IMG/VR virus record: IMGVR_UViG_2675903658_000005
Length of the DNA: 15,769 nt
Source of the DNA: a virus
Lineage: Duplodnaviria > Heunggongvirae > Uroviricota > Caudoviricetes
Reading direction: 5' to 3' (one strand)
Shown: positions 2,223 to 15,769 of the stretch, one piece after another
Layout of the letters: each line of letters begins with the position of its first letter
How positions within the stretch are numbered: the stretch's first letter is position 1
Notes under the pieces: generated by a model
Database searches by the model: none
The model's input: the letters and a program-made list of their open reading frames with translations, nothing else
What the model was told of the DNA's origin: nothing
Position numbers and translations under genes: made by a program

Positions 2223-3707
2223 ATGCGAAAAATAATTACTCATTTCAAAGTTGTTTTAACGTTACTTCTACCAGTAACCGTATCTGCCCAGCAGATACAG
2301 TGGCAATCCTGTATGGCCAGTCAATTCAACCACTGGTTTGGTGAGGAAAAACCGTCTCCTGACTTACTATGTGGTTATTTGTCTGTTCCATTAAAATATA
2401 CAGACACAGGCGGAGATGCTTCTTATGAAAAAAAATCACAAGTCAAACTAGCGTTGACAAAATTGCCGGCAAAAAGCAAGCATAAAGGAAGTATCCTGAT
2501 AATAAGTGGTGGTCCCGGGTTACCAGGCATAAATCCTTATATTAACTTTGACTGGCCAGTCACAAATCTTCGTGAGTCATGGGATATTATTGGATTTGAT
2601 CCTCGAGGCGTCGGACAGTCCACTCCGACAATAAACTGCCGGCAATCAGATACAGAGACTCAGGAAAACATAACCGAAAAGCAACAAGTATTAAATAAAA
2701 TTAATGCCTGTATCCATAATACCGGAGCCGAAGTCATTCGCCATATCGGCTCTAACGAGGCTGTATACGATATTGATCGTATTAGGCAAGCCTTGGGGGA
2801 TAAACAACTGACAGCCGTGGCGTATTCGTATGGAACTCAAATTGCAGCCTTATATGCAGAACGTTTTCCCTACAACGTAAGATCTATCGTTCTTGATGGA
2901 GTCGTCGATATCGATGACCTGGAGGACAACTTCACATGGCAACTCAAACAGGCACAGAGTTATCAGGAAACGTTTGATCGCTTTGCATCCTGGTGTGCGC
3001 GTACAAAAAGTTGCCCGCTTTCTTCAGACAGAGATAAGGCAATAACTCAGTTCCATGAGCTATTATCAAAATTACATCACAAACCTTTATTAGACAGTAA
3101 GGGAGAAAATATATCTTCAGATGAACTCATATCATTAACAACAGACCTTCTGCTATGGCGTTCATCATGGCCAACCCTTGCAACTGCCATACGCCAGTTC
3201 TCTCAGGGGATTGTCAGTAATGAAATTGAAACTGCGCTCAGTGCTCCGATAGCCTCAGAAGAGTCAAGCGATGCTTCGGGGGTAATCCTTTGTGTAGATC
3301 AGGGGGATGAGCAATTAACACCAGAAGAGCGAAAATCCCGAAAAGACGCTCTTGCGAATGCCTTCCCGGCTATTAACTTTGACAATGGACGTTCCGATTC
3401 ACCTGATTTTTGTGAATTATGGCCAATACATAGCGACCTGAACAAAACTCGCCTGAAAAATACTGTTCTGCCCTCTGGTTTACTGTTTGTAGCACACAAA
3501 TACGACCCAACAACGCCCTGGATTAATGCCCGTAAGATGGCAGAGAAATTTTCCAGCCCGTTACTAACAATAAATGGTGATGGGCATACATTAGCTCTCA
3601 CCGGAGTTAATTTATGTGTAGATAAAGCAGTTGTACATCACCTGATCACTCCACAAAAAATAGAAAATATATACTGCCCAGGAAATTCTGAAGCAGAAAT
3701 ACAATAA
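2223..3707 (+). CDS. Secreted alpha/beta-hydrolase, tripeptidyl-aminopeptidase (TAP)-like peptidase S33 family (putative)
   Basis: 494-aa ORF with N-terminal signal peptide (MRKIITHFKVVLTLLLPVTVSA-QQ). GGPG motif (ILIISGGPGLPG) and nucleophile-elbow-like motif AYSYGTQ as in TAP/prolyl-aminopeptidase-type hydrolases; several Cys suggest a periplasmic/secreted disulfide protein. Family assignment is from motifs only. Confidence 0.62.
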   Translation: MRKIITHFKVVLTLLLPVTVSAQQIQWQSCMASQFNHWFGEEKPSPDLLCGYLSVPLKYTDTGGDASYEKKSQVKLALTKLPAKSKHKGSILIISGGPGLPGINPYINFDWPVTNLRESWDIIGFDPRGVGQSTPTINCRQSDTETQENITEKQQVLNKINACIHNTGAEVIRHIGSNEAVYDIDRIRQALGDKQLTAVAYSYGTQIAALYAERFPYNVRSIVLDGVVDIDDLEDNFTWQLKQAQSYQETFDRFASWCARTKSCPLSSDRDKAITQFHELLSKLHHKPLLDSKGENISSDELISLTTDLLLWRSSWPTLATAIRQFSQGIVSNEIETALSAPIASEESSDASGVILCVDQGDEQLTPEERKSRKDALANAFPAINFDNGRSDSPDFCELWPIHSDLNKTRLKNTVLPSGLLFVAHKYDPTTPWINARKMAEKFSSPLLTINGDGHTLALTGVNLCVDKAVVHHLITPQKIENIYCPGNSEAEIQ

Positions 3708-4264: not shown

Positions 4265-4920
4265 ATGAAAAAAACACAGATGATGGGGCTAAAATTTACA
4301 CACCACTTACCCTAAAGCTTTATGACTGGTGGGTTTTGGGAGTATCAAATCGGCTTGCATGGGGATGTCCTACAAAGGAACACCTTCTTCCACACTTTCT
4401 GGAACATTTAGGTAACAACCATCTGGATATTGGCGTTGGAACTGGGTTTTACCTTACTCACGTACCTGAGAGCAGTCTGATATCTTTAATGGATTTGAAC
4501 GAAGCTAGCCTGAACGCGGCATCGACAAGGGCTGGGGAATCAAAAATTAAACATAAAATTAGCCATGATGTTTTTGAACCTTATCCCGCGGCGTTACATG
4601 GTCAATTTGATTCCATTTCCATGTTTTACCTTCTTCACTGCCTGCCTGGAAATATATCTACAAAAAGCTGTGTAATACGCAATGCGGCGCAGGCCTTAAC
4701 TGACGATGGAACTCTATACGGAGCCACAATTCTTGGCGATGGAGTTGTGCACAATAGCTTCGGTCAAAAACTGATGCGCATTTACAATCAGAAAGGCATC
4801 TTTTCAAACACAAAAGATTCCGAAGAAGGCTTAACACATATACTCTCAGAGCATTTCGAGAATGTTAAAACCAAGGTTCAAGGTACTGTAGTAATGTTTT
4901 CCGCTTCAGGGAAAAAATAG
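4265..4920 (+). pseudogene. ybcY: YbcY-like SAM-dependent methyltransferase, frameshifted in an A7 tract near the 5' end
   Basis: ATG 4265 with promoter and SD opens a frame that stops after 16 codons. The long frame (ORF track 4336..4920, motif I LDIGVGTGFYL) is open back to 4228 but is one base out of phase. Adding one A to the A7 run 4268..4274 restores a continuous ~219-aa protein (MKKNTDDGAKIYTPLTLKLYDWWVLGVSNRLAWGC...). ybcY is also a pseudogene in E. coli K-12 DLP12, from memory. Confidence 0.65.
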
Positions 4921-5694: not shown

Positions 5695-7754
5695 TCCACA
5701 ACCTCCCCAAGCTGCGCATCTGTTAGCTCTTTATGCCAGAGACGAAAATTCCTCACATGCCCAAATAAATGGCGTAATCCTGCTGTAGTTTGTCCACCAA
5801 TGCGAATGGTTGCTGTACTCCGGATATATTCCCATTTGGTTTTAGTTTCGCTGCTTAACTTACCGTTACTGACTACACATGTGGACCGTTCGGACTTTAC
5901 CCGCATACCAATAAGCATTTTTTCCAGCCCGGCATTTTCATTTATTCGTCGGTCTGAACCACCTATATCACAATACGGAAAACCGTCGTACCCACCTGAT
6001 GAACCAAACCCCATTACGATCCCCGCATCTGCCTGATGCCGGTATGTGTCAAAAACACGCGGTGCTGCATTTGGCGTTTTATACCAGTTCTTATGTACCT
6101 CACAAAGAACCGTAAAAGGAAGATTATAAAGATTATTCTTAATCGGAACTGTAACCATATCGCTTGCCCGCGTTACCGGTGCCGTCCCCGTAACAATAAA
6201 AGATGATGCGCCTGTACCAGCCTCAATCTGTGGAGTGGTTACATCGAGATAATCCCCTGATGCAACCATCTGCCCTGTATCCGGAGAATACTGGACAAAA
6301 CCACCAACCGTATTTTCTGTTGTATCTGCTTTTAATGTAGCCTCAAAAAATATCCAGCCAGTTGCATCATCCTTAACAGACCTTGCTGTAACACGGCTTG
6401 TCTGACCTGTCTTGCTAATTATGCGGGTGGTAAGGTTCAGGTTTGCTGCTCCTATTGATGTCCTTACCTCCCCATCATAATGTTCAAATAAAATACGAAC
6501 GGCGATATTATCAACTTCACTTTTTACCCGACAGGATATAGTTACATGCTTTTCGTCCCCTGAAGTATCAACCCCTCCGGTACTCGAATACAGTCCGATA
6601 ATGGTATGCGCTTTACTTGTACCAACAATCGAATCCTGTACGACAAACCGGCCATAATTAAACCCGAAACTATCTGTGCCTGTTTCTGTAACGTCCAGTG
6701 AAGTTGACTTATTCCACTTCGAAGGGTCTGTACTGTTCGGGAAGAAGTTCGTTCTTTGCCCCTCAATAAGCAGGCCATCACACTCAAATCGTGGCTCATT
6801 AATTTCCGCCGTTTTCAGTTCGCCAGATTTGTTGATATATGTTGCCGTTGATGCGCGACTGAAATTAACCTGTTTATCACTGGCAACCTGAACCACATTA
6901 TCACCAATCTTCACTTTTTTATAACCCGGAGAATAGCCCGTAATCATATCCAGCGAATCATTAAAGGGTATCCACACATCCGGCAGCGGCTGTAAAACAT
7001 ATCTGTACGGCTCTGCTGTCTGGTTTGCGTATTCTCTGGCAGCATCTTCACTTGCTTTTGCTGCCGTCTGGCTTGCTGCCGATGCTTTCGCCGAGTTCGC
7101 CGCCGCTGTTTCGCTCACCTTTGCGTTGGCTTCACTGTCTTTGGCATTCGTCTCACTGGTTTTCGCTGCCGTCTGGCTGGATTTTGCGTTTTTTTCGCTG
7201 GCCTTTGTGGCTGTCTCGCTATTTTTCGCGCTGGTTTCTGATTTTTTGGCTGCTGTCGCGGAGTTTGCCGATGCAGTCTGCGAGGCCGCTGCCGCCTGTG
7301 CGCTGTTAGCTGCATTCGTTTCTGAGGTTTTCGCCGCGTTCTTCGATGATGCCGCTGCAGTTTCGGATTTCTTTGCTGCCGCTGCGCTCTGTGATGATGC
7401 TCCGGCATGACGTGCCACTTCATTCACCATCAGCTCAAAACGGCGCAGTGCCTCCGGCATGACATCATCTTCCGTCATGGCGCCGAGAAAATCATTCAGC
7501 GTACCTGGTCTGGAACCTTCATAGACGGTAATGGTCCCGGCATGTGAAGGCGGAAAATCTTCAACCAGCAGGGTGACGCTGTACTGGCCATACTCAACAT
7601 CCATGCTGTAACGCCCGGCTTCATCCGGATTTTCAGAGGCCACCGTGTTCACCACCACCGTGCTGCTGGTCCGTCTGGCCTTCAGCACAATGGTGCAGTT
7701 CTGTACTGGTTTTCCTGTGCCATCTTTAAGCACGCCAGAAATTTTTACTGTCAT
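5691..7754 (-). CDS. stf: Side tail fiber protein (Stf) with conserved lambda-type N-terminus and divergent C-terminal receptor-binding region
   Basis: 687-aa ORF. N-terminal ~110 aa match the lambda Stf N-terminus as recalled (MxVKISGVLKDGTGKPVQNCTI...YSMDVEYGQYSV...FPPSHAGTITVYE...[14 protein letters not shown]). Central Ala/Ser/Thr-rich heptad-like repeats. C-terminus ends GLRHLFGHVRNFRLWHKELTDAQLGEVVE, resembling the C-terminal signature of concanavalin A-like lectin/LamG-type domains (inference). SD GGTGGA before ATG 7754. Confidence 0.85.
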   Translation of the reverse strand: MTVKISGVLKDGTGKPVQNCTIVLKARRTSSTVVVNTVASENPDEAGRYSMDVEYGQYSVTLLVEDFPPSHAGTITVYEGSRPGTLNDFLGAMTEDDVMPEALRRFELMVNEVARHAGASSQSAAAAKKSETAAASSKNAAKTSETNAANSAQAAAASQTASANSATAAKKSETSAKNSETATKASEKNAKSSQTAAKTSETNAKDSEANAKVSETAAANSAKASAASQTAAKASEDAAREYANQTAEPYRYVLQPLPDVWIPFNDSLDMITGYSPGYKKVKIGDNVVQVASDKQVNFSRASTATYINKSGELKTAEINEPRFECDGLLIEGQRTNFFPNSTDPSKWNKSTSLDVTETGTDSFGFNYGRFVVQDSIVGTSKAHTIIGLYSSTGGVDTSGDEKHVTISCRVKSEVDNIAVRILFEHYDGEVRTSIGAANLNLTTRIISKTGQTSRVTARSVKDDATGWIFFEATLKADTTENTVGGFVQYSPDTGQMVASGDYLDVTTPQIEAGTGASSFIVTGTAPVTRASDMVTVPIKNNLYNLPFTVLCEVHKNWYKTPNAAPRVFDTYRHQADAGIVMGFGSSGGYDGFPYCDIGGSDRRINENAGLEKMLIGMRVKSERSTCVVSNGKLSSETKTKWEYIRSTATIRIGGQTTAGLRHLFGHVRNFRLWHKELTDAQLGEVVE
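7019..7412 (-). repeat. In-frame heptad-like Ala/Ser/Thr-rich tandem repeats inside stf
   Basis: Protein region ...AAKTSETNAANSA...KKSETSAKNSETATKASEKNAKSSQTAAKTSETNAKDSEANAKVSETAAANSAKASAAS...; the DNA shows ~21-bp imperfect periodicity. This low-complexity stretch generates spurious overlapping ORFs in other frames (7025..7309, 7115..7423, 7126..7410). Confidence 0.7.
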
Positions 7755-7765
7755 ACTTTTCCACC

Positions 7766-7801
7766 AATAAAAAAAGCCCGCAGCAGTGACGCCACGGGCT
7801 T
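7766..7801 (-). terminator. Intrinsic terminator downstream of lom (copy 1), 11 nt upstream of stf start
   Basis: On the minus strand: stem aagcccg / cgggctt (plus coords 7774..7780 and 7795..7801) with ~14-nt loop capable of extra pairing, followed by TTTTTTTATT (plus 7766..7775). Confidence 0.5.
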
Positions 7802-7905
7802 CAGGACAGTGTAACTTTACGTTTCCTCAAACGCAGTTCACCCCATAAGGCGGATGAACCTGCGTATCATAACAATATTTACAGAAGATAAATCGGCGTC
7901 TGTTG

Positions 7906-8505
7906 TCAGAAACGGTATCCGATACCAACAATAAATGCATCCGTTCGCCAGTCGCCACTGCCGGAGCCTTCATAAGCAATATCAATGGCCACGGATTCGG
8001 TCGGGTTAAACTGCACGCCAGCTCCCCACGCCAGAGAGGTATTGCTGTGGCGACCGTCATCACTTCCGGTCAGCACGTCGTGCATTTTCCCCTTGTTGTC
8101 AGTTACGCGGAGATAATCCCCGGAGAAAGTCGACACACGGCTGTAAGCCACACCTGCCATCGCATAAGCACTGAACCATTCATTCACGCGCACAGACGGC
8201 CCCGCCATTACGCTGAACCAGCGGTTACGCACGGAATCTTCATGCCAGCGGGTATCGCTGTAATGCGTTTTTTGCTCATCTTTGGCATTGGCATAACTGA
8301 ATGACGTCACCAGCCCCAGCGTGTCCGTAAACTCATAACGGTATTTCACGTTAATCCCGTTCAGATCATCGCTGCCAGGCATATCAGTATGGGTCTGAAG
8401 ATACCCGGCGCTTAGTGTGGACTGATGCTCTGCTGCGCTCGCTGGCGTACCAGCGGCAACCAGCCAGACTACTGCGGACAGAATAACAGCACATAATTTA
8501 CGCAT
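7906..8505 (-). CDS. lom: Lom outer membrane protein (Ail/Lom family), copy 1
   Basis: 199-aa ORF with signal peptide; strongly similar to phage lambda Lom as recalled (EHQSTLSAGYL...NGINVKYRYEFTDTLGLVTSFSYA...WHEDSVRNRWFSVMAGPSVRVNEWFSAYAMAGVAYSRVSTFSGDY...). SD AGAGG upstream of ATG 8505. Confidence 0.9.
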   Translation of the reverse strand: MRKLCAVILSAVVWLVAAGTPASAAEHQSTLSAGYLQTHTDMPGSDDLNGINVKYRYEFTDTLGLVTSFSYANAKDEQKTHYSDTRWHEDSVRNRWFSVMAGPSVRVNEWFSAYAMAGVAYSRVSTFSGDYLRVTDNKGKMHDVLTGSDDGRHSNTSLAWGAGVQFNPTESVAIDIAYEGSGSGDWRTDAFIVGIGYRF

Positions 8506-8526
8506 AATTACCTCTCGCTTTTCTGC

Positions 8527-8553
8527 AATAAAAAAGGCGCCATTTCTGGCGCC
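8527..8553 (-). terminator. Intrinsic terminator upstream of lom copy 1 (duplicate of the J terminator)
   Basis: Duplicate of 9758..9784: stem ggcgcca / tggcgcc with 4-nt loop followed on the minus strand by TTTTTTATT. Confidence 0.5.
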
Positions 8554-8572
8554 CGTATTGGGGTTATAAAAT

Positions 8573-8695
8573 TCAGCTAATCGTGATGCCTGCAGTGGCT
8601 TTCTTCATCACAACAACCAGCAAATCGCTGATACTTGCTGTGGGATACCAGCCATTTACCCACCATGCTGATACAGAAAACTCCAGCGTCATGTG
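8573..8695 (-). other. Relic of the J 3' end (last 41 codons) created by the tandem duplication
   Basis: Identical to 9804..9926, the last 123 bp of J. No start codon, out of frame with the upstream stf fragment. Confidence 0.7.
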
Positions 8696-8985
8696 ACATC
8701 TTCCGTCATGGCGCCGAGAAAATCATTCAGCGTACCTGGTCTGGAACCTTCATAGACGGTAATGGTCCCGGCATGTGAAGGCGGAAAATCTTCAACCAGC
8801 AGGGTGACGCTGTACTGGCCATACTCAACATCCATGCTGTAACGCCCGGCTTCATCCGGATTTTCAGAGGCCACCGTGTTCACCACCACCGTGCTGCTGG
8901 TCCGTCTGGCCTTCAGCACAATGGTGCAGTTCTGTACTGGTTTTCCTGTGCCATCTTTAAGCACGCCAGAAATTTTTACTGTCAT
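8689..8985 (-). pseudogene. Truncated duplicate of the stf 5' end (97 codons, then VT-stop)
   Basis: 8697..8985 is identical to 7466..7754; the ORF diverges at the duplication junction (...GAMTED-VT* vs ...GAMTEDDVMPEA in full-length stf). Confidence 0.8.
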
Positions 8986-8996
8986 ACTTTTCCACC

Positions 8997-9032
8997 AATA
9001 AAAAAAGCCCGCAGCAGTGACGCCACGGGCTT
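8997..9032 (-). terminator. Intrinsic terminator downstream of lom (copy 2)
   Basis: Identical to 7766..7801 (offset 1231). Confidence 0.5.
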
Positions 9033-9136
9033 CAGGACAGTGTAACTTTACGTTTCCTCAAACGCAGTTCACCCCATAAGGCGGATGAACCTGCGTATCA
9101 TAACAATATTTACAGAAGATAAATCGGCGTCTGTTG

Positions 9137-9736
9137 TCAGAAACGGTATCCGATACCAACAATAAATGCATCCGTTCGCCAGTCGCCACTGCCGGAGCCT
9201 TCATAAGCAATATCAATGGCCACGGATTCGGTCGGGTTAAACTGCACGCCAGCTCCCCACGCCAGAGAGGTATTGCTGTGGCGACCGTCATCACTTCCGG
9301 TCAGCACGTCGTGCATTTTCCCCTTGTTGTCAGTTACGCGGAGATAATCCCCGGAGAAAGTCGACACACGGCTGTAAGCCACACCTGCCATCGCATAAGC
9401 ACTGAACCATTCATTCACGCGCACAGACGGCCCCGCCATTACGCTGAACCAGCGGTTACGCACGGAATCTTCATGCCAGCGGGTATCGCTGTAATGCGTT
9501 TTTTGCTCATCTTTGGCATTGGCATAACTGAATGACGTCACCAGCCCCAGCGTGTCCGTAAACTCATAACGGTATTTCACGTTAATCCCGTTCAGATCAT
9601 CGCTGCCAGGCATATCAGTATGGGTCTGAAGATACCCGGCGCTTAGTGTGGACTGATGCTCTGCTGCGCTCGCTGGCGTACCAGCGGCAACCAGCCAGAC
9701 TACTGCGGACAGAATAACAGCACATAATTTACGCAT
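9137..9736 (-). CDS. lom: Lom outer membrane protein (Ail/Lom family), copy 2
   Basis: 199-aa ORF, identical in translation to 7906..8505; in the position expected from lambda gene order (directly downstream of J). Confidence 0.9.
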   Translation of the reverse strand: MRKLCAVILSAVVWLVAAGTPASAAEHQSTLSAGYLQTHTDMPGSDDLNGINVKYRYEFTDTLGLVTSFSYANAKDEQKTHYSDTRWHEDSVRNRWFSVMAGPSVRVNEWFSAYAMAGVAYSRVSTFSGDYLRVTDNKGKMHDVLTGSDDGRHSNTSLAWGAGVQFNPTESVAIDIAYEGSGSGDWRTDAFIVGIGYRF

Positions 9737-9757
9737 AATTACCTCTCGCTTTTCTGC

Positions 9758-9784
9758 AATAAAAAAGGCGCCATTTCTGGCGCC
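9758..9784 (-). terminator. Intrinsic terminator between J and lom
   Basis: Minus strand: ggcgcca-gaaa-tggcgcc (plus 9767..9784) followed by TTTTTTATT (plus 9758..9766); 20 nt after the J stop, followed by the lom SD. Confidence 0.55.
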
Positions 9785-9803
9785 CGTATTGGGGTTATAA
9801 AAT

Positions 9804-12800
9804 TCAGCTAATCGTGATGCCTGCAGTGGCTTTCTTCATCACAACAACCAGCAAATCGCTGATACTTGCTGTGGGATACCAGCCATTTACCCACCATGCT
9901 GATACAGAAAACTCCAGCGTCATGTGGCCGCGACCAGCAGGCATATCAATAACACCACTGTAAACCAGCGTATTATCCATCGCGGTACGGTTATAAATTT
10001 CAGCACCGTTTTTCTTCACTATCAGGCGGCATGACGAATAAGTATCGCTGTTCTCCCGCTCATGTCTGGCACCGCTGAAAGCCACCGCCGGAATAACAAT
10101 CTGCCGGTTAAACGGCTGATCGTCATAAACCCTGACGGTAATGGTTCCTGATGGCCAACGCTTCGGTGCACGGGAGTCACGAGGGAAAGCCTTACCCACT
10201 GTTTTAACGAGATCGCCTTCAATCTGGTTTGCAGACAGTTTCCCTCTGATGACACAGTTCTCGTTAATGGTGACATTATTGAGCGTGCCGGTATTCGCCG
10301 TGATGGCTCCACTGATATCCGCATTGCGGGCTGTCAGCCTGCCATCCGGCGTCAGGGAAAACGTCGGAGGATTGCCGGATGACGTGATGCTCACCGCAAA
10401 CAGTCGCTTCAGGAACACGTCGTTCATGAACAGCTGATTCCCCTGCGCCACAAACAGCGGCGTGGTGTTGCCATTCTCCGGGGTAATCATCGCGATACGG
10501 TCAGCCTGCAGCAGAATACTGCTCAGCGTCTGACCATCAACATCCTCAATCCCCGCACCAATCCCGGCCACATAGGGAATACCGTTTTTTGTTTTCTGCA
10601 CCTTCAGCATATACATGGCATTCAGCTCATTGCGCGTGTCTGACTGAACCCGCTGGATTTGCTGTATGGTCACGGCCTGGTCACCCAGTTTTTTATCCGT
10701 GGTCGAGGTAATTTCACTCCCTTTTTTATCCACGTACTGGCGGACCTGTGCTATCTGTCGGGCATTTTCTGACTGCCCCTGGCTGACAGTCTGTGAGATT
10801 TCACTGCTCACCCGGTCCACTTTCTGGCTCACCTGCGCGATGGCCAGTGTCTGGTCCTCATTCTTTTTCGCAACCAGCTGCGTGAGGCTGTTTTCCGCCT
10901 CCCCGATTTTCCGGGTCACTTCTGCGATATCCGTGTCCATCCGCTGACGGATGTCTTCTTCCAGTTGCGTGACCTCCGTACGCAGCGCTGAAGCATCAAT
11001 GCGCTCTTTCAGTGCCTGGCCCAGAAGCGTCTCATCTATCAGCCCCCGGAAAATTTCCAGATACCCTTCACCATCATTGCTGGGCTGCCCGCTGGCTTCC
11101 ACAAAAGCAGATTTTCCCACCAGGTTGACGCTTCGCACGTAAAACCAGAAATCCGTCCCCGGCTTAATCCGGCTCCCCTGGACAGTCCACTGACTGCCGG
11201 TCCCCAGATAACGGGCAGATTTTTCCACCTGTGCCGTGTTCGTGATGCGTTTTTCTGAGAACCAGAATTCAAACTGTACCGTCGGGTCATACACCGCAAG
11301 ACGCGGGACCGCCGTTATCTGAAAATACCCCGGCGTCAGCTCAATGGTGGCGGGTTTTGCAGGCGCGTTAATCCGGAAGGTGGTGGTCGCAGGTTCGCCC
11401 TGCTGGCCGTAGCTGTTAATGGCCCGCACCGTCAGGGTGTATTCCCCCAGCGGCAGACCACTGAAACGGTGCTCCGTGTCTGCGGTGATGGCGGTGCTCA
11501 CCAGACGGCTGTCTTCTCCGCTTCCGCTGGTCAGACGCAGACTGAAGCGCACACCCTTCACCACCCGCGGCGTGTCCCATTTCGCCTGTGCCAGATACTG
11601 ACCGTCAGCTGCACTCACCTCCACCGTCAGGTGCTGCACTGCCGGTGGGATAACGCTGTTCAGGCTGCCTGACTGCGGCTCAAAGCTGGCCCCGTTATCC
11701 ACAATGGCTTCTTTTTCCGGTACGTGCTGCACCGCCGTGATGGCGAACGTGCCGTCCGTGTTTTCCCGAATGGAGACACAGCGGAACAGGCGACGACGCA
11801 GTGACGGCAGGGAGAGTCCCCACACACCGTATGTCTCCACACCATCCGGCAGGGTGCTGACCTGTATCCGGTCAGGCGCGGGGTGTGCGGTGATGGCCAC
11901 GCTCGCCGGCTTACCGCTGCCGTTAATCAGATTAACAGTGGCCGTGCCGGTCTCCGGCAGTGTCACCTCCCGGTCCAGCGTCAGGGTACGGCTGGCGGCA
12001 TCGATGGACAGGACACGTCCGCCGGTCATGGTCCCGGCATAGTCGTTATCACAGATTTCAATGATGTCACCGGGTGTGTGACGCAGCCCCTGTGACCCGA
12101 GCGTGAAATCCACCGTCTGCGTTTCCAGCAGTTCGGTCTTTATCACCCACAGCCCGGCACGGTGGGCCTGACCGCGGCTGGTACAGCCGAACGCGTCCAT
12201 CTTCAGCAGGTTGCGTCCGTAGCGCAGTATGGCTTCCGGGTCTTCCACCAGTTCCGTGGAGGTCTGCCAGCCGTTCTGCGGGTCGGTGTAATTCACCTCC
12301 ACTGCCGTGTGCCGGTCCTTCAGGGCACTGAAGCTGTAGCGGAAACCCACGCCGTTATCATCCACCACCACATCGCTGTTGGTGTACGGCCACACCACAT
12401 CCGACGGACGGTCCTGAACGAACGTCAGCGTCTGGCCGTTCCATACCGGCATACAGCGCATCGCAGAGCAGAAATCACTGAGAACGTCCCACGCCTTACG
12501 CTGTTGTGCCAGGTACGCATTAAAGGTCATCCGCGGCTCGGTCCCCCCGAAACCATCCGGGACCGTCTGGTCGCAGTACTGCCCGATGGCATACAGCGCC
12601 CACTTGTCCACATCCGCCGCCCCCAGACGTTTTCCCATGCCGTAGCGCGGGTGAGTCAGCATGTCCCACAGACACCAGGCCGGGTTGTTGCTGTATGCCG
12701 GTTTCAGGCTGCCGTCCCAGATACCACTGTACGTGCGTTTTTCCGGGTCATAGTTTGACGGCACCTGGATGATGCGACCGCGGATATGGTAGTTCACCGT

Positions 12801-13496
12801 CATCTGCTGGCCGCCGAACTGCTCCGCATCCACCTGCAGCCCCACAATGGCCGTGTTCGGGTAGCACTGTTTCACATCGATGATTTCGGTGTATGACGAC
12901 CACAGCGTCTTATTCTGCAGCTGGTCCGTGGTGCTGTCCGCCGTCTCCCTGACCATCCGGATGTTAAAGGGCCGGGGAGGCAGATTATCCAGAATCACCG
13001 AGGCCAGGAACTGCGAGGTGGTCTTGCCGTTAATGGTGACATCCTTTTCCGTCACCCAGCGGCCATTACGCTGTAACTGAATCAGAATCCGGACAGAGGA
13101 AGGATTACGGTCGCCCCTTGACGTGGTCTGCACCAGTGACTGCACCCCGAAGGTAACCCGCAGGCGGTCAATGTTCGCGGACGTAATGGTGCGCGTCACC
13201 GGTTTTGCCTTCGTCACTTCCACGCCCAGTCCGGTTTCAGCTCCGGAGGACTCAAAGCCTTCCGGTGGTGTCTGCTCCTGCTCCCCGGCACGCCAGACCG
13301 CGGTCACACCGTGTATCACGGGATTACCGTCCGTGTCCGTCAGCGGGGTTTTGTTCACCAGGATACTCTGCAGTCCCTTCACCGGACCTTCTATCGGTCC
13401 CTCACCAATCGCATCAATCACACTCATCATCTGCGTGGATTTGAGATTATCCTTCGCCTCACGAGGCGTGTGTGCCTTACCGCCACCTTTTCCCAT
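9804..13496 (-). CDS. J: Tail tip / host specificity protein J (central tail fiber)
   Basis: 1,230-aa ORF; N-terminal ~800 aa closely track lambda J as recalled (MGKG..[16 protein letters not shown]...[32 protein letters not shown]...[14 protein letters not shown]...). Carries a coiled-coil-like insertion and a divergent last ~200 aa relative to lambda. SD AGGGGAAGG before ATG 13496. Confidence 0.93.
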
Positions 13497-13599
13497 ACAG
13501 CCTTCCCCTGAATAAATTAACCGCCACTTGCCATTCCGTACAGAAGTCGGATATCCTTCGCCCGAAAAGCATGAAACACATTTCTGCCATGCTAAAGAG

Positions 13600-13637
13600 A
13601 AACCCCGGTATCAGCAGATACCGGGGTTTTCTTTCAT
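13600..13637. terminator. GC-rich hairpin with U-rich flanks on both strands in the I-J intergenic insertion (possible bidirectional terminator)
   Basis: Perfect inverted repeat aaaccccggtatc (13600..13612), loop agca, gataccggggttt (13617..13629). Plus strand is followed by tctttc; minus strand by tctctttagc. Confidence 0.5.
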
Positions 13638-13701
13638 GCCCACCGATAATCCTGTTGGTTAAAACCGGTAATGGCATAAAAATTCTGAATATCTTCACAT
13701 T

Positions 13702-13729
13702 TTCACAAAATCCCTGTGGCACTTATAAT
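13702..13729 (+). promoter_or_regulatory. Near-consensus sigma70 promoter on the strand antisense to the tail operon
   Basis: TTCACA (13702..13707), 16-bp spacer, perfect TATAAT (13724..13729); predicted start near 13736. Confidence 0.45.
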
Positions 13730-13735
13730 TTCTCT

Positions 13736-13827
13736 GCGTTAATTTTTTTTGTCGTGACATAAGAATAATTATCTATAGTTGATCTTCGTAACGCTCCCGC
13801 AGCTCCGCAACTCTGCGGGATTTTTTT
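13736..13827 (+). ncRNA. Candidate small RNA (~90 nt) between promoter 13702..13729 and terminator 13795..13827
   Basis: No ATG and no plausible ORF in the interval; 5' U8 tract (13742..13750), AU-rich body, 3' intrinsic terminator. Purely predicted from promoter/terminator geometry; no expression evidence. Confidence 0.3.
13795..13827 (+). terminator. Rho-independent terminator (plus strand)
   Basis: Stem tcccgcag (13795..13802) / ctgcggga (13813..13820), 10-nt loop, then TTTTTTT (13821..13827). The minus strand has no U-tract after the hairpin, so it is plus-oriented. Confidence 0.6.
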
Positions 13828-13834
13828 ATTCTTT

Positions 13835-14515
13835 TTACCCCTGCCGCCCGATAACCACGACCTTTCCGCCCCCGCCTTCATCACGGGTGCTGATGTCCTG
13901 GGATATACGGCGGGAGCCAACCAGCATTTCCCCGTAAGGCACCGGCATCGGGTTCCCCTGGGCAATCATGTTATCCAGCGAGGAAAAGTACGTGTTCTGT
14001 CTGCCGTTATCCGTTACGCGGTAATCCGGTGTTTTTGCCTTCGGGGCCAGCATCTGTGCCACACCGCCCAGTATCATGCTGGCCCCCAGTGAAAACAGCA
14101 TCGTGGTGGCAGAAAAACCACCGGCTGCCAGGGCTGAACCCCATAACGCCATCGAGGCACCGGCCGTGAAGAAAGAGCCCACGATGGCTGCCGCCCCCAG
14201 CACAATCTGCAGTCCGCCCTTTCCGGCTCCGGCCAGTCGCGGCACAATGTGGATGACCGTTCCCTCACCCAGCTGTTCGTGAAGACGGGCGTACACCGCC
14301 TCCGGTGCCGTGTCATCACCGGCAATACGTATCTGGTACCAGCCTTCGTTCATCTGACGGCGAAAGCCCGGCACCTGTAACGACAGGGCACGGATGGCTT
14401 CCGCTGCCGTGTTCACATACAGGCTGAGGCGGCGGCCAAATCGTTGCAAATCCCCGTGAAGGCAGATGCGTGCCAGTGGCGGTGACGCCAGACAGAATGC
14501 GTTCGTCGTTGCCAT
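13835..14515 (-). CDS. I: Tail tip assembly protein I
   Basis: 226-aa ORF closely matching lambda gpI as recalled (LASP..ARICLxGDLQRFGRR...AEAIRAL...GWYQxRIAG...IHIVPRxAGA...QIVLGAAAIxGSFFTAGA...FSLGASMxLGGVAQMLAPKA...NTYFSSLDNMxAQGN). Confidence 0.9.
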   Translation of the reverse strand: MATTNAFCLASPPLARICLHGDLQRFGRRLSLYVNTAAEAIRALSLQVPGFRRQMNEGWYQIRIAGDDTAPEAVYARLHEQLGEGTVIHIVPRLAGAGKGGLQIVLGAAAIVGSFFTAGASMALWGSALAAGGFSATTMLFSLGASMILGGVAQMLAPKAKTPDYRVTDNGRQNTYFSSLDNMIAQGNPMPVPYGEMLVGSRRISQDISTRDEGGGGKVVVIGRQG

Positions 14516-15166: not shown

Positions 15167-15769
15167 TTACTGCGAAAGTTTATTAATGGAAAGGAAACCG
15201 CCAAAATTGCCGACATTCCTGCGCAGTTCACACCCGCGCATGCACTTGCTGCATCTGTCCTTACGGATATCCGTGGTGGGTTTATCGAACTCATCCGCCA
15301 CAGCCTCGCCCGTGTAACCACACTCATCAGAGCGGTAGGTCCACATACAGGTGTTCGCCAGCATGATACGACCGGGAAACAGCGCCCCGTCCGTCTCGGT
15401 CGGTGTGGCCAGCACAAACGAGGCCGTCATGGCTGTCAGCTGCGACATCTGCTCCACCACCCAGCGGTCACTCAACTCCTGCTCCGGGTCCGCCGCCGGA
15501 TTGCCCGCAACGAAATTCACCGCATCCAGAAAACGGGCATACACCCGGCGGCGGACCACCGTGGCCCCCACCAGACTCTGCAGGTCCTCCGCCACCCCGG
15601 TGACAAGGCCAAACAGATTGGACACCGTCAGCGACGGGCGGGCACTGCTGCCCCGGCCGTTCATCTCAAAGCCGCTGCCGTCAATCGGGTATGCCTCATA
15701 CTTACGCCCCTGCCAGGTGACCGGCTCCCCTTTTTCATTCAGCTCATTACAGAAAAAATACCGCTCACC
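15167..15769 (-). CDS. L: Minor tail protein L (partial; 5' end lies beyond the window)
   Basis: Frame is open to the window edge; translation (GERYFFCNELNEKGEPVTWQG...SSARPSLTVSNLFGLVTGVAEDLQSLVG...GNFGGFLSINKLSQ*) matches lambda gpL. The ORF-track Met at 15664 is internal. Confidence 0.85.
   Translation of the reverse strand, partial: GERYFFCNELNEKGEPVTWQGRKYEAYPIDGSGFEMNGRGSSARPSLTVSNLFGLVTGVAEDLQSLVGATVVRRRVYARFLDAVNFVAGNPAADPEQELSDRWVVEQMSQLTAMTASFVLATPTETDGALFPGRIMLANTCMWTYRSDECGYTGEAVADEFDKPTTDIRKDRCSKCMRGCELRRNVGNFGGFLSINKLSQ

Follow-up and report, generated by a model that had tools for sequence, protein, structure and literature searches.

The right half of the gap between the tail genes I and J of this lambdoid prophage very probably carries the gene of a Hfq-dependent, trans-acting small RNA (sRNA), which belongs to the family of PasB from EPEC E2348/69 and EcOnc22-24 from EHEC O157:H7 Sakai and is inserted as a moron at a fixed site. 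The window, i.e. the whole stretch of 15,769 nucleotides that was analysed (IMG/VR virus record IMGVR_UViG_2675903658_000005), contains on its minus strand the distal part of a lambdoid tail operon. The original prediction, which was made from the letters of the DNA, had proposed an antisense promoter-terminator cassette for a prophage sRNA in this gap, and had left open whether the sRNA was an already named one. The proposal is supported, and the open question can be answered with yes: the homologues PasB and EcOnc22-24 are located at the same slot and are experimentally detected sRNAs. The element is not new. It is a divergent, unannotated allele of a validated prophage sRNA family, and its sequence anatomy, homology, fixed position and distribution are established in this work.

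The coordinates of the I-J gap and of the elements in it are listed in Table 1. The length of 338 bp for the gap (13497-13834) was borne out by the ends of the open reading frames together with the Pfam calls, and every feature that had been listed by the original prediction was found where it had been placed. The same 338 bp are identical in E. coli ABU 83972, and the RefSeq annotation of that gap there is 'none'. As had been claimed, no credible ORF exists in the predicted RNA, whose in-frame start codons are limited to GTG-ACA-TAA and a TTG that lacks a Shine-Dalgarno sequence. When the left half of the gap (13497-13672) was searched for a second sRNA or a small ORF, just a weak promoter-like site was found (9/12, 13528-13557), along with a 37-codon ORF without Shine-Dalgarno sequence, which is out of frame and overlaps the start of J. 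The left segment exists in two classes, the 186-nt class of the window, which is nearly invariant, versus the 83-84-nt class of E2348/69. The stretch 13497..13599 is near-invariant in more than 60 contigs, and is missing from E2348/69 and lambda.

Table 1. Positions of the I-J gap elements and their flanking genes in the window
Feature	Position	Strand	Remarks
J, tail tip attachment protein	9804..13496	-	seven Pfam gpJ domains; gpJ in RefSeq
About 100 nt from the J start to the hairpin	13497..13599	.	confined to the 186-nt left-segment class
Perfect 13-bp GC-rich hairpin, AAACCCCGGTATC / GATACCGGGGTTT	13600..13629	.	T-rich runs on both strands
Sigma-70 promoter, TTCACA-16-TATAAT	13702..13729	+	11/12 positions match; predicted start G13736
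Predicted sRNA, divergent allele of the PasB/EcOnc22 family	13736..13827	+	92 nt from the predicted start
Conserved core GATCTTCGT, consensus RATCTTYRT	13781..13789	+	just 5' of the terminator; candidate seed
Rho-independent terminator, 8-bp stem, 10-nt loop, U7	13795..13827	+	scan, sequence reading and folding
I, tail assembly protein	13835..14515	-	Pfam Lambda_tail_I, E 5.7e-16; RefSeq 'tail assembly protein' (ABU 83972)

The near-consensus sigma-70 promoter that had been described opposite the tail operon was recovered by a consensus scan, with 11 of the 12 positions matching. Three promoter-like sites were found in a 1.4-kb region, compared with 0.8 +/- 0.9 in shuffled sequences. The 25-mer around the -35 element is identical between the window and E2348/69, and PasB there has the same hexamers and the same spacing; among the alleles of the family, the -10 element appears as TATAAT, AATAAT or GATAAT. 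The expected U8 tract is present at 13743-13750. The 5' end that is annotated for PasB falls at 13750, past the U tract, from which an RNA of 78 nt (13750-13827) would result. The 5' end of the window RNA is therefore uncertain and would be either 13736 or about 13750, which are 14 nt apart. The transcript of about 90 nt that had been predicted holds with the start at 13736 (92 nt), but not if the 5' end of PasB applies (78 nt).

The intrinsic terminator, for which an 8-bp stem and a T7 run had been given at 13795..13827, was found again both by reading the sequence and by folding. In its stem, T13795-G13802 pairs with C13813-A13820, and the T7 run occupies 13821-13827; an alternative stem of 6 bp with a 4-nt loop is the form reported by the scanner. 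The terminator ends 7 nt ahead of the I stop codon, and is one-directional because there is no T run after the hairpin on the tail strand. Its arms (CCCGCAG/CTGCGGG) are essentially invariant across the alleles, and its loops vary. The window RNA folds with an MFE of -21 kcal/mol (z -2.4). In the RNAalifold consensus of 14 diverse alleles, the terminator stem is the sole helix, and no compensatory pairs were found among these alleles because this stem never varies. Since there is no covariation and the only conserved helix is the invariant terminator, the structure gives no independent support.

The core upstream of the terminator is the one part of the RNA body that is conserved among the 38 distinct alleles (at least 120 IMG/VR contigs). 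Its predicted unpaired probability ranges from 0.37 to 0.98 across the alleles and has a moderate value, 0.48, in the window allele, where a predicted local hairpin half-sequesters the candidate seed. The same core region has been proposed as the seed by Zhu, Shabalina and Storz 2026 (bioRxiv 10.64898/2026.05.13.724894).

The first named homologue is PasB, one of the five 'Pas' sRNAs that were defined by RIL-seq in EPEC E2348/69 (Pearl Mizrahi et al. 2021, PMC8550237). PasB (E2348CN_0006) is an 83-nt RNA of prophage PP6, located at NC_011601.1 1466343-1466261 (-), and its Northern probe is AATCCCGCAGTGATCGCGGAGCT (PMC8550237 Table S6). In the RefSeq record this interval lies between I (ends 1466255) and gpJ (starts 1466496), antisense to both genes. 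The reverse complement of the probe, AGCTCCGCGATCACTGCGGGATT, corresponds to AGCTCCGCAACTCTGCGGGATT in the window. PasB is abundant and visible on Northern blots, with the highest level in static overnight LB, and it drops in the hfq deletion (log2FC -6.8 and -2.4) (PMC8550237). In the same paper, 37 significant RIL-seq interactions are given for PasB, which is nearly always the sRNA-side partner in the chimeras; these chimeras on Hfq involve many unlinked core and accessory transcripts, and MEME found no target motif.

PasB and the window element share the I-J slot antisense to the tail operon, the TTCACA-16-TATAAT promoter, a similar predicted size, the TTGATCTTC core (GAUCUUC), the terminator arms and the U7 tail. 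The alignment has 61 identical positions out of 87 over the RNA as annotated, and 74 out of 102 when it begins at the predicted start. However, the identity is just about 70-73% and no exact word is longer than 15 nt; another sequence block makes up the 5' two-thirds of the body, and the terminator loop differs. The 5' body of the window allele is replaced relative to PasB (GUCGUGACAUAAGAAUAAUUAUCUAUAG versus GCCCGAGUAACAAAAACAACUCCUUCACA). The left half of the gap is also unlike, having 186 nt with another hairpin in the window and 84 nt in E2348/69.

The other named homologues are EcOnc22, EcOnc23 and EcOnc24, which were identified as Hfq-CRAC sRNAs in EHEC O157:H7 Sakai (Tree et al. 2014, PMC4104026 Table S2). 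They belong to the prophages Sp15 (Stx1), Sp14 and Sp11, respectively, are all encoded on the plus strand, appear as RNAs of about 85 nt on Northern blots, and are 'destabilised' in the hfq deletion (PMC4104026). EcOnc22 is entered with targets unknown in a 2021 review (Sy and Tree 2021, PMC7873438). All three published coordinates fall within I-J gaps, where the tail genes are on the minus strand. The common Northern probe of EcOnc22-24 is GGGAGAGAACGATGAAGATTAACTGATGAGTTA (PMC4104026), and in the Sakai gaps its complement matches the RNA body over 23 nt, GTTAATCTTCATCGTTCTCTCCC, directly before the terminator. The last 10 nt of the probe differ from the three genomic copies (L125-L127), TAACTCATCA versus TAACTCCATAAC. 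The published peaks (NC_002695.1) sit about 128 nt left of the RNA in NC_002695.2. This offset presumably reflects the difference in length between NC_002695.1 and NC_002695.2, and adding 128 bp would put the CRAC peak on the RNA. As the peak coordinates are off the RNA, the identification rests on the probe sequence.

Like the window element, EcOnc22-24 lie antisense in the I-J gap, and their terminator CCCGCAGCTCCGC..CTGCGGGATTTTTTT is identical to that of the window. The core AATCTTC is common to both, and the RNA identity is 76%. The differences are the -10 element AATAAT, another spacer, a shorter and different 5' body, and a left segment of the short class. No statement that equates EcOnc22-24 with PasB was found in the searched literature. 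EHEC homologues are given for PasA and PasD, and none for PasB, in PMC8550237 Table S6; the EcOnc names are not mentioned in the preprint of Zhu, Shabalina and Storz 2026. For these homologues, transcription, size, Hfq dependence and RNA-RNA chimeras have been demonstrated by others.

The window RNA has the features that are common to the family, namely the I-J slot, homology in the promoter, core and terminator, a promoter and a terminator of its own, and a predicted size in the range of about 80-100 nt. When IMG/VR was scanned with the promoter 25-mer, at least 120 contigs with 38-39 distinct cassette alleles were obtained. Both the exact PasB of E2348/69 and the exact window allele are among the listed alleles, which form one graded mosaic family with intermediates joining PasB, EcOnc22 and the window. 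The alleles are mosaics of a few blocks, with a 5' body of GCCCGAGTAACAAAAACAACTCC... or GTCGTGAYATAAGAATAATT... and several terminator loops, and the parts that stay constant are the promoter hexamers, the U tract, the core RATCTTYRT and the terminator arms. The identity of the window RNA is highest, 95%, with the allele L096, and falls to 83% with the commonest allele and 76% with Sakai EcOnc22; with PasB it is 73% if calculated from the predicted start.

The position of the cassette is fixed. Among the IMG/VR matches listed, I and J lie within 500 bp of the cassette in 108 of the 120 contigs, and the remaining listed cassettes lie at a contig end, have lost I, or are split by an IS. In the contigs L033 and L129, an IS (beginning TGAACCGCCCCGGGAATCCTGGAGACTAAACTCC...) is located in the promoter spacer directly after the -35 region, and judged from this position it would inactivate the sRNA gene there. 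In E. coli O157:H7 strain 8368 (L124) and in L103, L005 and L046, the cassette is kept although I (and K) is deleted; the cassette in those O157 prophages adjoins a truncated L pseudogene.

The cassette is more than a chance spacer. Sensitive blastn with its 145 nt finds the promoter-terminator unit again at the I-J junctions of 1844 out of 5426 complete E. coli genomes (4496 places). Among the same 5426 genomes, megablast with the 83 nt of PasB found 956, and megablast with the 92-nt window RNA found 34. The window allele is rare, and its carriers include ABU 83972, M1/5 and O25:H4 isolates; it is identical in at least 27 genomes from different sources. Among the GTDB species representatives, the cassette was found only in E. 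albertii and in three short contigs, which are probably contaminants. Two hits in Deltaproteobacteria were rejected as chance matches to a 22-mer.

The distribution of PasB in Escherichia has been surveyed with a word size of 28, and the variants reported there differ by few nucleotides (Zhu, Shabalina and Storz 2026). The same survey locates PasB within structural operons of phages and finds it commonly in strains other than EPEC/EHEC. Because of the word size of 28, the window allele was probably uncounted there. As a tentative but quite possible extension of our main reading, the I-J sRNA family would be about twice as widespread as the PasB survey implies (34% of complete E. coli genomes versus 18% by PasB megablast), and PasB and EcOnc22-24 would be united in it as mosaic alleles with a constant promoter, RAUCUUY core and terminator and a swapped 5' body. 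In the same extension, the window allele would be typical of ST73/ABU 83972-like ExPEC and have targets partly unlike those of EPEC PasB. If this is true, the family would be a module that re-programs host regulation and travels with tail modules.

The mechanism that we propose for the window allele follows its homologues. The right half of the gap, about 13683-13834, would be a stand-alone gene for a small non-coding RNA, carried at a fixed site by lambdoid prophages of Escherichia. Its near-consensus sigma-70 promoter would be active in the lysogen and convergent to the late operon, which is silent there, and the intrinsic terminator would halt transcription 7 nt before the I stop codon, giving an RNA of about 78-92 nt. 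By homology, Hfq would bind and stabilise this RNA, which the terminator hairpin and the U7 tail would allow. Both are retained in the window allele, as in the homologues PasB and EcOnc22, for which Hfq binding is reported. The RNA would then base-pair in trans with mRNAs of host and prophage, for which the conserved and presumably largely unpaired GAUCUUC core upstream of the terminator is the most likely site. For the window allele, expression, the identity of the seed and the targets belong to the inferred part of this model. Since the 5' two-thirds of the RNA body have diverged, the targets may differ from those of PasB.

The place of the gene invites a different explanation, in which the RNA or the convergent transcription acts in cis. 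Through RNase III cleavage of the duplex or through interference, it would tune J, lom and stf in lytic growth, or silence leaky read-through in the lysogen. Over its full length the RNA is indeed complementary to the spacer between I and J in the late tail mRNA, and in PasB, EcOnc22-24 and the listed contigs that were examined the gene without exception occupies I-J on the strand opposite the tail operon. In every gap class, moreover, a terminator-like hairpin on the tail strand stands beside the gene, which suits insulating J from read-through. However, the RNA overlaps no coding sequence or ribosome-binding site, as it ends 7 nt before the I stop codon, and the sRNA promoter is about 190 nt from the start of J. 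Late transcripts of lambdoid phages are made under Q antitermination and at a very high level, which also counts against a cis effect. Many of the carriers are defective prophages, some of them with I deleted, that still keep the cassette, and the chimeras of PasB with many unlinked transcripts on Hfq fit action in trans. A role in cis is therefore considered improbable.

It is even less likely, to the point of being barely credible, that the window cassette is an inactive relic, poorly transcribed or functionless, hitch-hiking with the tail module, with a 5' body shaped by drift and recombination rather than by selection. Such a relic would agree with the rarity of the allele (34/5426 genomes), with the mosaic and variable RNA body that has no covariation, and with the searched literature, in which no family member has a described function. 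The promoter, however, matches at 11 of 12 positions and the terminator is intact. Among the alleles the spacer and the body vary, whereas the -35 and -10 elements, the core and the terminator arms stay the same or nearly so, as would be expected if selection acted on an expressed sRNA. The identity of the allele in at least 27 genomes from different sources also speaks against decay, and homologues with a weaker -10 element (AATAAT, Sakai) are expressed and readily detected. The reading as an expressed, trans-acting sRNA gene is preferred over both alternatives.

The original prediction had also taken the segment for an insertion of the moron type and had suggested comparing the I-J junction with those of related lambdoid prophages. 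In lambda, the I-J gap is 60 bp long and has no cassette. The 338 bp are thus not present at every junction, and the unit, with its own promoter and terminator, is a moron-type insertion rather than a universal spacer. Morons were defined for the phages HK97 and HK022 (Juhala et al. 2000, as cited in PMC4104026). Like those, the present unit is an autonomous promoter-gene-terminator unit between conserved late genes, is missing in a close relative and would be expressed from the prophage. Unlike those, its cargo is a non-coding RNA and not a protein gene, and in the contigs listed it occupies only this one site.

Other known sRNAs were considered and rejected. AgvB/AsxR (RF02702, RF02703) are anti-sRNAs of EHEC prophages, with 51-60 nt and a common 42-nt 3' region (Tree et al. 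2014, PMC4104026). They resemble the window element in being prophage-encoded, Hfq-binding, short and of the moron type with their own promoter and terminator; however, they are located downstream of PR'/Q near stx/lysis genes, versus the tail operon here, and their size of 51-60 nt also differs. Neither Rfam family had a hit in the window. With Rfam 15, the whole window gave no match at the gathering thresholds, and the hits in the gap at E values up to 10 were chance hits, mostly terminator look-alikes. Among these, GcvB (RF00022) over 13692-13829 (+) reached 10.9 bits (E 7.9) versus a gathering score of 42 bits and was dismissed as chance. The Rfam result says nothing on membership in the PasB/EcOnc22 family.

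The second hairpin of the gap had been suggested to insulate the cassette or to attenuate read-through from I into J. Its perfect 13 bp and its T-rich flanks on both strands were confirmed (fold z-score about -6), but it does not belong to the cassette in particular. Just before J, a GC-rich hairpin with a T run after it on the tail strand occurs in three unrelated forms, at 13600-13629 in the window, at 6431-6454 in the contig L002 and within 15445-15504 in lambda (L123); it may be an attenuator, or an element for mRNA processing or stability. Gaps of the E2348/69 class have an unrelated hairpin followed by TTGTTTTTG on the tail strand, which was scored as terminator-like, and this short-class hairpin has two compensatory forms, CAGGCACC/GGTGCCTG versus CAGGCATCC/GGATGCCTG. 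The lambda hairpin, AAACCGCC-TGCG-GGCGGTTTT, lies directly ahead of the ribosome-binding site of J. Because a hairpin precedes J at junctions with or without the sRNA, it is a positional feature of I-J junctions. The 13-bp hairpin is regarded as the local stand-in for this pre-J hairpin, outside the sRNA unit. With its T run also on the plus strand, the hairpin of the window class could shield the sRNA promoter from antisense read-through.

One IMG/VR contig (L064) is without exactly 47 bp, corresponding to 13587-13633 of the window with the 13-bp hairpin included. The missing segment is flanked by the short imperfect direct repeats TTTCTGCCATGC / TTTCTTTCATGC, which suggests that the hairpin may be gained or lost via slippage or recombination.

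The reading of the sequence alone had picked out a real prophage sRNA gene that is unannotated in RefSeq and Rfam. The biological gain is modest, as a divergent allele of a validated Hfq-dependent sRNA is placed in extraintestinal and commensal strains, e.g. ABU 83972. In addition, the names PasB and EcOnc22-24 are tied to one locus, and BLAST surveys with a word size of 28 are indicated to undercount the family. If different targets are set by the allelic 5' bodies, the I-J slot would offer a simple, naturally occurring case in which to study the evolution of sRNA specificity through module exchange.

Other features of the window were also noted. An exact tandem duplication of 1230 nt is present at 7466-8695 and 8697-9926, with a spacing of 1231 nt. 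It spans the N-terminal part of the side tail fibre gene, the complete lom (Ail/Lom) and the 3' end of J, so that lom exists in two identical copies (7906-8505 and 9137-9736), and a truncated stf fragment lies at 8689-8985. ABU 83972 has a single lom, though it is otherwise identical around I-J. Beyond the tail fibre region, Pfam identified as cargo an omptin-family outer-membrane protease (1023-2036, +), an alpha/beta hydrolase with a TAP-like C-terminus (2223-3707, +) and a SAM-dependent methyltransferase (4336-4920, +).
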